64,000 nt of DNA from Escherichia phage EPIMAM01, in the sequence record PQ493298. One strand, written 5' to 3'. Below, piece by piece: positions 49,882 to 54,171 of the stretch. Under the pieces are notes generated by a model. It searched no databases and was not told where the DNA came from. It saw nothing but the letters and a program-made list of their open reading frames with translations. Position 1 is the first letter of the stretch. Every line of letters starts with the position of its first letter. The position numbers were made by a program, and so were the translations under genes.

Positions 49882-50868
49882 TTATTTCAGAAGAGTAACC
49901 TCAGCAATTTCTTCCCAACCGTTTTTGTCGGTCATAATAAAGTCAGCAAGATAAAGAGCAGTACGCAGTGAAACATTGCGTAAACGATTAACATTAACTT
50001 TCATCCATGATAATGCTTTATAAGTTTCTTCATCAGAAAGACCGCGCTTTTGCATCATGTCAGTTGAAAGAATAACATCTTCAACCCTGACCATAATTTC
50101 TTCATTAGTGTGAACACCCAAATCTAAATAAACCGAGCGGGACACTAATGCTTGTAAATGTGGAGCAAGTTTAGTACCACGGTCTAATTCGCGGTCAATG
50201 TCAACGTTTGTGATAAAAACAATCGTTCCTTTAAATTCAAACTCACGCTCAATGCCTTTTTCTTCTAAGTAAGAAGACGCAGTGCTCCAGCAGACTTTAC
50301 GGGTCTCTCCAGTGTCCAGAGCGGCTTTTAGAAGATTAAGAATGTCCATATCAGAGAAAACATCCACATCATCAATTAAAAGGACAGAATTCTCTTCACG
50401 ATTATTCCAGAGCTGCTCATAAAGACCAATACCAGAGATTTTACCGTTAATGCTTTTATATTCAATGTATCCAATATCATTTGCTTTATTTAAAGCTTTA
50501 TCTAAAGAATACGTTTTACCAATACCTGCCGCACCAGAGATAATCAATGAACGAATATTTCCGTTAATAATACCATTCGTCATCATTCCCATAACATTAA
50601 ATCTTTTATTAATGCGGGTTTTCATATCTTCATATGATTCTTTAACTTCTTCAACTTTTACACCATCATATGAAATGTCTGATTTGTAAACCCAAACACC
50701 GCGACGTTTACCATCAATTTCAACAAAAACTTTACCATCTCCTTGTGCATCTACCGGAGCATTATCTGGGAACCATTCGCCTAAGAGCTCAAAAGTTCCA
50801 GAGATTTCTTTACCGAAGTAGATACCCTTATTGATAGTTACAGTTTTCATTTTATTCTCCAATTTCAC
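49882..50868 (-). CDS. putative AAA+/P-loop ATPase
   Basis: Track ORF 328 aa; Walker A GAAGIGKT and Walker B LLIDDVD. Confidence 0.55.
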   Translation of the reverse strand: MKLENKMKTVTINKGIYFGKEISGTFELLGEWFPDNAPVDAQGDGKVFVEIDGKRRGVWVYKSDISYDGVKVEEVKESYEDMKTRINKRFNVMGMMTNGIINGNIRSLIISGAAGIGKTYSLDKALNKANDIGYIEYKSINGKISGIGLYEQLWNNREENSVLLIDDVDVFSDMDILNLLKAALDTGETRKVCWSTASSYLEEKGIEREFEFKGTIVFITNVDIDRELDRGTKLAPHLQALVSRSVYLDLGVHTNEEIMVRVEDVILSTDMMQKRGLSDEETYKALSWMKVNVNRLRNVSLRTALYLADFIMTDKNGWEEIAEVTLLK

Positions 50869-50886: not shown

Positions 50887-50917
50887 ATAGTATCACACTA
50901 CTACCCTTGCTGTAAAC
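50887..50917 (-). promoter_or_regulatory. T4-type early promoter
   Basis: GTTTAC, 19 nt, TACTAT; flanked by AGGGTA/TACCCT inverted repeat. Confidence 0.5.
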
Positions 50918-50920
50918 AAC

Positions 50921-51184
50921 TTATTTTAATGTTTGCCAAATTTTTACTGCTTCGCGACGAGATACTTCTACAGCTCCAAGTTCTACAGCTTTTTGGCGTC
51001 GCCGAGCGTGTAAGTCATAATGTTTAATGCGTTTATCTTGAAACCAAGAACGTTTCATTCCTATTGCTTCTGCCATTTCATGAAGCTCTTCAATATCTCC
51101 ATCAGTGAACATATGACAATTTTTAGTTGGATGACCGCGAAGTTTCCATCCATGATTCATTAAAACATCTACGTAAACTGTCAT
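50921..51184 (-). CDS. hypothetical protein
   Basis: Track ORF 87 aa. Confidence 0.5.
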   Translation of the reverse strand: MTVYVDVLMNHGWKLRGHPTKNCHMFTDGDIEELHEMAEAIGMKRSWFQDKRIKHYDLHARRRQKAVELGAVEVSRREAVKIWQTLK

Positions 51185-51330
51185 TGATTCTGCTCCAAAT
51201 ATGTTTCTATAATTTTCTGAGCGAGATAAACTGCGTTATCTTCAGTTGCATCTTCTAAGAAATTTTCAAAATAAGCTGAAATTTCTTCTGTGTCAATCAA
51301 CTTTTTTACTTCAATTAACGTAGTTTTCAT
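51181..51330 (-). CDS. small acidic hypothetical protein
   Basis: Track ORF 51181..51498 trimmed to internal ATG (MKTTLIEV) with GGGGA SD; the longer start runs through the promoter. Confidence 0.4.
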   Translation of the reverse strand: MKTTLIEVKKLIDTEEISAYFENFLEDATEDNAVYLAQKIIETYLEQNQ

Positions 51331-51364: not shown

Positions 51365-51394
51365 ATAGTACCATAAAGCTTTATGCTTGTAAAC
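51365..51394 (-). promoter_or_regulatory. T4-type early promoter with conserved leader
   Basis: GTTTAC, 18 nt, TACTAT; promoter-leader identical to 24541..24587. Confidence 0.6.
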
Positions 51395-51424: not shown

Positions 51425-51444
51425 AGGGAGCCCGAAGGCTCCCT
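51425..51444 (-). terminator. tetraloop hairpin ending the nucleotidyltransferase operon
   Basis: agggagcccgaaggctccct followed by a T run. Confidence 0.6.
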
Positions 51445-51445
51445 A

Positions 51446-52459
51446 TCATTTATAATAACTTCGATGGTTTTCAAGATAAACCCTCTCAAGGAAGTCATCC
51501 CAGAAACCCATGTCTACTTTTTGCTGCATACCGTTCTTAGAAGCTTCAATGGATGCTGCTTCTACTTGATCGACCACATCTTCCAAAAACTCTTGAACAG
51601 TTTTAAATGGATGTTTACCCAACTTCACGTCGAGAATAAATGGAGCATCTTGAAGTGGATAGACTAAGTCACCAGTTTTGTAAATTTCCAATAGTTGGAG
51701 TCCACCACGGCAAGCATGACTCAGAGCTTTCCAGTCAATGCCCTCATTAGCTTCGGCCTTACGAGCGCGTTCGCCGTATTCAGCATCAAGTTTATTCAAA
51801 GATTGCTTAAGCTCGATAAGAGAAAGCGTTGTTTGATATTTACGACCCAACACGGTGTAGAACGTTTGTGGGCCTGTTTTCTCATGATTATGGAATACCC
51901 ATTCACAGAATTCGTTCTCTGGAAGACGATGCTTAATATCTTCAACTTTAGTTCGACGCTGCTTAATGGAACCGTCTTCTTGGTAATCAACCCATTGCTC
52001 AGGGATTTGATTAACTACTTTCAATACATCACGTAATGCGGCCAAACGAGAACCCTTAACACCGTATTTAGAAGCTTGCTTGCGAACATATCCTAAATAG
52101 GATTTCATGTTAGTCGTATAAAAACGAGAACGATTGTCTTGAATAAACTTCCATACATCAGGCAAATCAGATTTAACCACTAGTTCCGGTGGAGTGTGGA
52201 GCATATCCAATGCTACAGTTTCACCATCTGCAGCTAATTTAAAGAAATACTTAAGACTATATAGTTCATGGTCAATATCATCTTTAGTGTTTTTAGATGA
52301 TGTGTTGTTAGTGTTTTTACTCATATGCTCTTTAACATTTCCGATAAGAATATCACGAGCAGGAGGAACAAAGATTTCTTTAAAATCTACATCAGATTCT
52401 GGAGTAGAAGTTCCATAAAGATGACTACCAAAATAGCTTTTCATTACTGTTTTCATCAT
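51446..52459 (-). CDS. putative Pol-beta-superfamily nucleotidyltransferase
   Basis: Track ORF 337 aa; N-terminal GS-x10-DVD motif (YFGSHLYGTSTPESDVDF) and a downstream acidic residue (VALDMLH). Confidence 0.55.
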   Translation of the reverse strand: MMKTVMKSYFGSHLYGTSTPESDVDFKEIFVPPARDILIGNVKEHMSKNTNNTSSKNTKDDIDHELYSLKYFFKLAADGETVALDMLHTPPELVVKSDLPDVWKFIQDNRSRFYTTNMKSYLGYVRKQASKYGVKGSRLAALRDVLKVVNQIPEQWVDYQEDGSIKQRRTKVEDIKHRLPENEFCEWVFHNHEKTGPQTFYTVLGRKYQTTLSLIELKQSLNKLDAEYGERARKAEANEGIDWKALSHACRGGLQLLEIYKTGDLVYPLQDAPFILDVKLGKHPFKTVQEFLEDVVDQVEAASIEASKNGMQQKVDMGFWDDFLERVYLENHRSYYK

Positions 52460-52917
52460 TCAGCCTTATATTCAATAACAGGACATACTTTAGCTTTACG
52501 CGCTTTTAAAAATTCGACGATAATAGATTTCTTGGGTTGAATAGGAGGTAAACCTTTATACGCCCTATCAATATTTTCTACATGTAAAGCATAATCCTTT
52601 TTCCATTTATAATCTTTATATTTTTCATGCAGTTGTGCAGGAATAACAAATGAACCAATAATAAGTAAAACAAGCAAAATGGCAAATATAAATGCTGATG
52701 GAATAAGAGTCCATAAACTACCAAAAATAATCCATTTCTGTATGATTTCTGCGCAGATGATAGTTAGACCTGTGAGTATAGTACATCCGAAAAAAGAAAC
52801 GAAAAATGTAGGGATAACAATAGACCAAAAGTATGCACACAGTGTCTTAGGTCGTTTCCATTCGTCGTTAAACAGTTTGAATAATTTATAGTGCCAAGAG
52901 TTTTCATTAATAATCAT
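52456..52917 (-). CDS. multi-pass membrane protein
   Basis: Track ORF 153 aa; three hydrophobic helices; ATGA overlap with the downstream NTase gene. Confidence 0.5.
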   Translation of the reverse strand: MIINENSWHYKLFKLFNDEWKRPKTLCAYFWSIVIPTFFVSFFGCTILTGLTIICAEIIQKWIIFGSLWTLIPSAFIFAILLVLLIIGSFVIPAQLHEKYKDYKWKKDYALHVENIDRAYKGLPPIQPKKSIIVEFLKARKAKVCPVIEYKAE

Positions 52918-52919
52918 AA

Positions 52920-53441
52920 TTATCCTTTCATTGAAGGTGTAACAGTTGTTAAATACTTAATCATAGCTTCAGCTTCTGATTTTGATAATGAAATTTCTCC
53001 ATTGTTTTGACGAATAGAAATAAAATCCGGATGACGGTCACCACCAGCTTTTAAAATACACATATAAGTATCAGTTTCATCTTCAATATCTGAAATGATT
53101 GAAGCAGTTCCACATGAATGTGGTTTTTGATAAATCAATGCAGCTTTTCTTCCACCGTTTGACTGTTCATAAACTTTTAACACATCAAACAAATCGCTTC
53201 TTTTATCAATAGCTAAGATGTTGTTTTCATCTTCAATGTTAAATCCTTCGGATACTTCATAAAGTGTCACCCATAAATCACCTATATCGATAGTAGCATT
53301 TCCTTTTCCACGACTTTCAAGAGCATGACAAATTTTCTTGATTTCATCATAACTCATTTTAATAATATCATCTCCTTGAATAAGAAAGATGTCATTTTTA
53401 AATTCAACACGAATTAAACCGCTTTCACTTGAAATAAACAT
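52920..53441 (-). CDS. hypothetical protein, paralogue of 53448..54005
   Basis: Track ORF 173 aa; shared C-terminal motif SKSEAEAMIKYLTTVTPSM. Confidence 0.5.
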   Translation of the reverse strand: MFISSESGLIRVEFKNDIFLIQGDDIIKMSYDEIKKICHALESRGKGNATIDIGDLWVTLYEVSEGFNIEDENNILAIDKRSDLFDVLKVYEQSNGGRKAALIYQKPHSCGTASIISDIEDETDTYMCILKAGGDRHPDFISIRQNNGEISLSKSEAEAMIKYLTTVTPSMKG

Positions 53442-53447
53442 ATTTCC

Positions 53448-54005
53448 TCACTTTGAAATCATAGTTGGAATGACAGAATCAAGATAAGTCTTTAGCGCAA
53501 TAGCTTCGTCTTTGGTAAATGTGACAATATGTGATCGAAAATCATCAATTTGACGAATAGTTAAGACATCTCCATCTTCATAACATTTTGATACATTTAA
53601 AACAGTTTCATCATTTTGATTGCAAGCGTTAGTAATAATAGCATTGCAATTTTTGAGCCATTTTAAACTATGTTTTCTTTCATTAGAATAATAAAAATAT
53701 TTAATCTTATCTATAAAACTATCCCAATGGATAACTGATAAACACATTGACTCACTTTTAATATTAAATCCTGGGCATGAAGAATAAAAATGAATTTTGT
53801 GCTCATCATTGATGCTTACTATTTTATCAGTATAAGGATATTCAATTTGGGTTAAATGAATGATTTCGCTAGGAGTAAAATATAGCATATCATCTTCTTG
53901 CGTCAAACAATACATATTATTTACTTTTTCTATAGCCAATTCGCCAAAAAGCGGACTAACTTCTAATACTAATCGTTTCATATTGATTCTCTTCGACTCA
54001 CTCAC
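53448..54005 (-). CDS. hypothetical protein, paralogue of 52920..53441
   Basis: Track ORF 185 aa; GTG or internal ATG start; C-terminal motif TKDEAIALKTYLDSVIPTM. Confidence 0.5.
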   Translation of the reverse strand: MSESKRINMKRLVLEVSPLFGELAIEKVNNMYCLTQEDDMLYFTPSEIIHLTQIEYPYTDKIVSINDEHKIHFYSSCPGFNIKSESMCLSVIHWDSFIDKIKYFYYSNERKHSLKWLKNCNAIITNACNQNDETVLNVSKCYEDGDVLTIRQIDDFRSHIVTFTKDEAIALKTYLDSVIPTMISK

Positions 54006-54141
54006 AATTACATACTCCTTTGAATAATATCAATAATGTTGTTCACCAGATTATAAGTAAACATTGGATAATTATATTGAATCATCACATACACAACAAA
54101 CAAAACTTTCATTCTCTTCTCCTTGGCAGTTGACAAGATTA

Positions 54142-54171
54142 CTATATCATAACCTTGCCAACTTGTAAACC
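54142..54171 (-). promoter_or_regulatory. T4-type early promoter for the nucleotidyltransferase operon
   Basis: GTTTAC, 18 nt, TATAGT. Confidence 0.5.

Follow-up and report, generated by a model that had tools for sequence, protein, structure and literature searches.

The canonical RlaP nucleotidyltransferases (NTases) of Pseudomonas are encoded in RtcB-RlaP-RtcA operons and consist of a DNA polymerase beta (Pol-beta) type NTase domain, with a GS motif and three conserved Asp residues, followed by a helical domain. [quoted passage not shown] Two of them, from P. fluorescens and P. aeruginosa, were reported in a December 2025 preprint to add 1-2 nucleoside monophosphates to the 3'-OH of RNA, with a preference for Mn2+ and, in a cleaved tRNA mimic, for the site of the break, and to be inactive on DNA and protein (PMC12776372). 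They also partly restore the aminoacylation of a tRNA missing one anticodon-loop nucleotide, and RlaP was proposed as an antidote to "smart" ribotoxins, RloC among them, whose cut is followed by trimming (PMC12776372). The same study placed NrdC.11 of phage T4, without assay, in RlaP cluster 5. The same prediction was made for phage RlaPs in a 2021 survey (PMC7824862), and NrdC.11 had been noted to be an NTase as early as 2006 (COG3541; PMC1524935). Here, we analyze the nrdC.11 orthologue of Escherichia phage EPIMAM01 and the gene cluster to which it belongs, in a stretch of 64,000 nucleotides (nt) of record PQ493298 that we call the window. Coordinates given without a locus name are positions of the window, and the cluster is read on its minus strand.

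The cluster, the family assignment of its enzyme, and the proposed role are already published. The cellular context described below ties the specific clade of NrdC.11, and not just PF10127 (RlaP) generally, to Pnkp/Hen1/RtcB operons in bacteria and archaea. This strengthens the published prediction that nucleotide restoration is a third RNA-repair activity of T-even phages, beside Pnkp and RNA ligase. If true, nucleotide restoration could be the phage's answer to RloC and other anticodon nucleases that had been regarded as a match for phage repair. The finding is of modest practical value, NrdC.11 being widespread in T4-like phages and its function predicted only.

NrdC.11 and the RlaP family

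The window belongs to a Tequatrovirus, a T2/T4-like phage, and the region is an ordinary, already catalogued T-even early gene cluster with the order mobD.2, mobD.1, a mobD.1 paralogue, a small membrane protein gene, and nrdC.11. The last gene (51446..52459) encodes a protein of 337 amino acids (aa) that is almost certainly the orthologue of T4 NrdC.11 (NP_049709, 336 aa, with orthologues in T2 and T6) and an NTase of the RlaP family. It shares 99% identity with the T2 protein, the cluster of which comprises 751 member sequences, and NrdC.11-type NTases are carried by 1517 phage records. The match to PF10127, described as "RNA repair pathway DNA polymerase beta family", reaches 43.8 bits (gathering score 23, E = 3.3e-11) and is confined to residues 7-135, corresponding to profile positions 23-142 of 249; PF10127 is precomputed on all 177 listed NrdC.11 homologues. 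PHROG 388, labeled "nucleotidyltransferase", matches the protein along its full length. In databases, NrdC.11 and other nrdC.x products are widely mislabeled "thioredoxin", and one NrdC.11 is labeled "HNH homing endonuclease".

The initial annotation, made from the letters alone, had recognized a Pol-beta-type NTase by the signature G-S-x10-D-V-D and a downstream acidic residue, a reading borne out by both alignment and structure prediction. Residues G11, S12, D23, D25, D61, D63, and D85 are invariant among 62 homologues down to 50% identity, with the motif G11-S12-x10-D23-V-D25, and the Pol-beta core of RlaP, hG[GS] plus three conserved carboxylates, is present. An AlphaFold2 model built on a 62-sequence alignment (predicted local distance difference test, pLDDT, 86.7; predicted template modeling score 0.70) shows an N-terminal alpha/beta NTase domain of ~115 residues with a Pol-beta core, a helical domain made up of helices 119-149 and 214-336, and, at ~155-209, a beta-rich insert. 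Foldseek searches with this model retrieved only weak matches in the PDB, all to Pol-beta NTases, and only phage and giant-virus NTases in BFVD. Sequence searches of the PDB with NrdC.11, its profile, or canonical RlaP returned nothing meaningful.

The relationship to canonical RlaP is detectable in both directions. A profile-profile comparison of NrdC.11 with 12 canonical RlaPs by hhalign gave a probability of 82% (E = 1e-5) over the first ~130 residues, in which D23, D25, and D63 align with the invariant D49, D51, and D88 of canonical RlaP, and D85 with E110. Conversely, a canonical RlaP query finds nrdC.11 of the window directly (E = 6e-7). The two differ beyond this domain, as NrdC.11 is ~70-80 residues longer, carries the beta-rich insert, and falls into the separate cluster 5 (PMC12776372). 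A HEPN-type RNase motif was sought in the C-terminal bundle and rejected on reading the alignment, as the invariant H248 and R251 fit Rx4-6H neither in order nor in spacing. One NrdC.11 of the Phi1/RB49 type (L011:3504-4202) is only 232 aa long and lacks approximately residues 133-235 of the window protein, a segment that includes the beta-rich insert as well as some of the helical domain.

The Pol-beta superfamily fold and the GS...DxD active site are shared with two groups of bacterial systems, CD-NTase/CBASS and MNT-HEPN (type VII toxin-antitoxin). One alternative is that NrdC.11 is an MNT-like antitoxin-type NTase that nucleotidylates, and thereby inactivates, a HEPN or other toxin of the host as a counter-defense against toxin-antitoxin systems. 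Around GS...DxD, the N-terminal part weakly resembles MntA and NTP_transf_2, and MNT (7ae9) is among the Foldseek matches. However, both profiles stay below their cut-offs, far below in the case of MntA (13.2 bits against 60; NTP_transf_2, 13.9 against 21), the combination of an NTase with a helical bundle is a generic KNTase-like/RlaP architecture and not specific to MNT, and the genomic context favors RNA repair. We therefore rejected the MNT antitoxin as a candidate and hold such a role to be very improbable. CD-NTase/CBASS signaling was also rejected. None of the four larger proteins of the cluster matches a PADLOC model, which rules out a detectable CD-NTase similarity, and none has a significant NCBIfam family or a CD-NTase Pfam match. 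The membrane protein has no recognizable sensor domain, and no nucleotide-sensing effector is encoded nearby.

Cellular relatives and the proposed role in RNA repair

Because the alignment with canonical RlaP is limited to the N-terminal domain, we examined the cellular context of the NrdC.11 clade itself. A search through prokaryotic genomes, one for each species, yielded 80 loci (L028-L107) encoding full-length NrdC.11 relatives (30-54% identity over residues 2-330), in both bacteria and archaea, and neighboring genes were counted within 6 kb of each. RNA-repair neighbors occur at 37 of these loci: canonical RlaP at 28, RtcB at 10, Pnkp at 9, Hen1 at 8, and RtcA and Ro/TROVE at 2 each. RNA end-healing and sealing enzymes are the only recurrent neighbors. 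Two loci illustrate these arrangements with an order confirmed by Pfam: Hen1, Pnkp, NrdC.11-like, RlaP, RNA ligase in one (L100, 1975-8836), and RtcB, RtcA, NrdC.11-like, RlaP, Hen1 in the other (L060, 1675-13381), where Ro, ahead of RtcB, and Pnkp, beyond Hen1, were detected by tblastn only. The NrdC.11 clade itself, like canonical RlaP with its RtcB and RtcA partners, is thus tied to RNA end-healing and sealing.

The canonical RlaP gene at the 28 loci lies mostly immediately downstream of the NrdC.11-like gene, on the same strand. Such tandems of two different RlaPs may reflect clades doing different jobs. The NrdC.11-like/RlaP pairs are often located inside Hen1-Pnkp or RtcB-RtcA operons.

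Taken with the family assignment, this context makes it probable that NrdC.11 adds nucleotides to damaged RNA 3' ends together with the phage Pnkp and RNA ligase; both the predicted 3'-end-adding activity and the putative anti-nuclease role are extrapolated from relatives and neighbors. NrdC.11 would restore nucleotides on nuclease-damaged tRNA ahead of ligation. Its main substrate would be the tRNA halves produced when a host anticodon nuclease, RloC for instance, trims away a nucleotide in addition to cutting. Pnkp and Rnl1, encoded elsewhere in the phage genome, could then rebuild the full-length tRNA. An anti-defense role, one of the functions envisaged in the initial annotation, is kept in this form only, in which RNA damage caused by anticodon nucleases of the host would be repaired. 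A T4 deletion spanning nrdC.11 to mobD.3 is viable on a laboratory host (PMC9825161), which fits a conditional, host-dependent function of nrdC.11 and an accessory status.

Several observations weigh against this role. At 43 of the 80 cellular loci, no RNA-repair neighbor was found within 6 kb. Similarity to canonical RlaP does not extend past about residue 131, and the C-terminal two thirds, including the beta-rich insert, are specific to the clade, so that substrate and product could differ. The enzymatic activity is a prediction from the two assayed Pseudomonas RlaPs. In the window, queries with cellular exemplars detected no RNA ligase, Pnkp, or other end-healing gene, and nrdC.11 adjoins neither an RNA ligase nor a Pnkp gene. 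Finally, the authors of the preprint themselves point out that the random nucleotide choice of RlaP makes the repair model inefficient (PMC12776372).

Some of these points would also suit another function, in which NrdC.11 is an RNA 3'-tailing enzyme acting on the stability or function of host or phage RNA during host takeover, or nucleotidylates a substrate other than RNA, a small molecule or a protein, like KNTase/LinB or DrrA-type enzymes. The clade-specific C-terminal domain and beta insert leave room for a different substrate specificity, the position of nrdC.11 in an early unit suits a takeover function, and over half of the cellular relatives are without RNA-repair neighbors. Against it, the characterized RlaPs act on RNA only and not on DNA or protein, the recurrent neighbors of the clade are all RNA end-healing or sealing enzymes, and no antibiotic-NTase or Fic/AMPylator family is significant for NrdC.11 by sequence. 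We consider such a function unlikely and retain RNA repair as the preferred role.

The membrane protein encoded upstream of nrdC.11

The gene preceding nrdC.11 (52456..52917) encodes a membrane protein of 153 aa belonging to PHROG 944 (phrog_944, E = 1.5e-49). The two genes overlap by 4 nt in the sequence ATGA, or by 1 nt if nrdC.11 starts at its second ATG to give a product of 336 aa, as in T4 and ECML-134. The coupling of this gene to nrdC.11, noted in the initial annotation, is correct; its three transmembrane helices are not secure, as hydropathy delineates two hydrophobic stretches of ~33 residues each (~27-59 and ~62-94), compatible with two to three helices. The family comprises 414 clusters at 50% identity (E <= 1e-3). 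Residues C27, Y29, C145, and P146 are invariant and S7-W8-H9 nearly so, these motifs being located at the two soluble, cytoplasmic ends, which could form a metal or redox site. A Pfam scan of 96 family members gave chance hydrophobic matches only, with no family covering the protein, and the family profile matched no solved chain in the PDB beyond hydrophobic composition.

An NTase encoded next to a membrane protein had been interpreted as a nucleotide-signaling or toxin/effector module. The closest model is Hailong, in which the NTase HalB is associated with the membrane channel HalA. By this analogy, NrdC.11 and its translationally coupled neighbor would act as one module, in which an oligonucleotide made by the NTase gates or neutralizes a membrane effector, for superinfection exclusion or as a decoy supply of oligo-dA against Hailong. 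The ATGA overlap joins the two genes, which are also adjacent and coupled in Mosigvirus, and 10 of 16 membrane-gene loci examined in IMG/VR have an NTase within 0-1.2 kb.

The pairing is nevertheless not conserved. The two genes are adjacent and coupled in Tequatrovirus and Mosigvirus only, and T4 itself has the mobD homing endonuclease gene at the position of the membrane gene. The distance upstream of nrdC.11 is three genes in Jiaodavirus and one gene in Acinetobacter phages, and the intervening genes are unrelated. No homologue of the membrane protein was found directly upstream of nrdC.11 in five further T4-like lineages examined (Proteus, Slopekvirus-like, Aeromonas, Vibrio, and RB49-like phages). 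Five of the 16 IMG/VR loci have no NTase within 5 kb, phage records with the membrane protein number 855 against 1517 with the NTase, and all 80 cellular NrdC.11-like loci are without the membrane protein. As T4-like genomes are strongly syntenic, common descent of the region accounts for the proximity that remains.

Hailong itself is a defense system of bacteria and not a set of phage genes, and it shows no sequence relationship to the pair. The similarity to HalB is limited to the generic NTase core fold (142 residues, 14% identity), without any signal at the sequence level. As far as testable, there is no relationship between the membrane proteins either, and the phage family has neither a PADLOC model match nor a solved relative beyond hydrophobic composition. 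Membership in Hailong, which calls for a HalB-type NTase obligately paired with a HalA channel, was rejected, and we see little to recommend a Hailong-like module. The broader signaling or effector interpretation is likewise unsupported, the NTase belonging to the RlaP family, matching no CD-NTase or PADLOC model, and lacking a conserved partner. There is a still smaller chance that a true two-component module exists in T2/T6-type and Mosigvirus phages, in which, for example, the NTase would make or extend an oligonucleotide controlling the membrane protein. Such a module might have borrowed a Hailong-like logic for superinfection exclusion or for countering Hailong-type defense, with the invariant His/Cys motifs at the cytoplasmic ends as a sensing site.

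At one of the 16 IMG/VR loci, a T4-like genome of 162 kb (IMGVR_UViG_2706796796_000001) has a membrane gene cut to ~42 codons and lacks nrdC.11 but keeps nrdC.10, representing a natural deletion of the pair.

Organization of the predicted transcription unit and its accessory genes

Over ~3 kb, the region is 96-98% identical at the DNA level to many Tequatrovirus genomes, including ECML-134 and BW-1. The cluster had been described as four packed genes; their coordinates and spacing are accurate, and a fifth gene, encoding a 34-aa MobD.2 orthologue, had been missed at 54008..54112. From mobD.2 onward the intergenic gaps are 2, 6, and 2 nt, followed by the ATGA overlap. The early promoter and UUCG hairpin reported on either side of the cluster were both found. 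The putative promoter (54141..54169), of the sigma-70/T4-early type, precedes mobD.2, reads TTTACA-17-TATAGT with an upstream TG extension, and scores 10/12 in a consensus scan. The predicted intrinsic terminator (51425..51444) begins one base past the nrdC.11 stop codon and consists of the stem AGGGAGCC-UUCG-GGCUCCCU, with 8 pairs of which 6 are G-C, followed by a T run. Compared with shuffled sequence, terminator-like sites are enriched in the scan (9 seen for 2.2 expected), and promoter-like sites detected by the simple consensus are not (33 seen for 24 expected).

Conservation supports both signals. The promoter recurs at the corresponding place in T4, almost base for base, and also in the Mosigvirus phage moha with its sequence conserved, and T4 carries an identical terminator after nrdC.11. 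Sequence comparison thus indicates that the cluster is bounded by a conserved, predicted promoter and terminator. A second candidate promoter (51365..51393, minus strand; TTTACA-17-TACTAT, TG-extended), also detected by the consensus scan, is kept in T4, where nrdC.10 comes next; as it begins the next unit, it marks the boundary of the operon. In moha (L004:4490-4530), the promoter before mobD.2 is retained and the terminator after nrdC.11 is missing, so that the boundary of a "self-contained" operon is specific to Tequatrovirus.

The unit of T4 matches that of the window by its conserved promoter and terminator and by its mobD.2, mobD.1, and nrdC.11 genes, orthologous gene for gene, as the initial annotation had allowed in a caveat. 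The interior differs. T4 has the order mobD.2, mobD.1, mobD, nrdC.11, nrdC.10, in which mobD encodes an HNH homing endonuclease and overlaps nrdC.11, and neither the 173-aa paralogue described below nor the 153-aa membrane protein is encoded at that position. The insertion site of the free-standing endonuclease gene mobD, between mobD.1 and nrdC.11, is listed in PMC2988022. The best explanation of these data is that the four non-enzyme genes of the cluster are accessory genes sharing a promoter and not obligate partners of NrdC.11.

The 34-aa protein, whose gene is preceded by an AAGGAG Shine-Dalgarno sequence, matches phrog_3515 (E = 6.5e-22) and T4 MobD.2 (phmmer, E = 6e-20). The next gene (53448..54005) starts with a GTG at 54005 or with an ATG eight codons downstream, as in the ECML-134 record, and encodes a y05I-like protein of 185 aa orthologous to T4 MobD.1 (phmmer, E = 8e-106). 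It is followed by a gene for a second y05I-like protein of 173 aa (52920..53441). The two proteins are indeed paralogous, as initially proposed (27% identity, E = 6e-9). Like T4 MobD.1, both match PF24449 and PF24448, with 132.3 and 75.8 bits for the 185-aa protein (E = 1e-38 and 3.5e-21) and 110.7 and 82.4 bits for the 173-aa protein (E = 6e-32 and 3e-23), exceeding the gathering scores of 24.9 and 27, respectively. The Pfam label of these domains, T4_y05I_N and T4_y05I_C, is "putative transcription factor". The tandem second copy is narrowly distributed (13 clusters) and absent from T4 and Mosigvirus. The AlphaFold model of the 185-aa protein is unusable (pLDDT 46.6, from a shallow alignment of 11 sequences), the y05I profile found no solved relative among PDB sequences, and a literature search on y05I and mobD.1 found nothing on function.

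A metagenomic protein of 179 aa (P0188) is a natural chimera of the two paralogues, MobD.1-like over its N-terminal half to two thirds and of the 173-aa type over the remainder, which implies recombination between the tandem genes. MobD.1 and MobD.4 carry a propagated database misannotation as [quoted passage not shown].

Downstream of the cluster, the window contains an insertion relative to T4 between the nrdC.11 terminator and following promoter on one side and nrdC.10 on the other. It is located at 50921-51330 (minus strand) and comprises a 49-aa open reading frame and a DUF4031 gene (87 aa; PF13223, E = 1e-21). The nrdC.10 gene of the window has its own TTTACA promoter at 50916..50887. 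Its product, an NrdC.10 orthologue of 328 aa (49882-50868, minus strand), carries the Walker-A motif GAAGIGKT and gives weak, sub-threshold matches to AAA/STAND NTPases.

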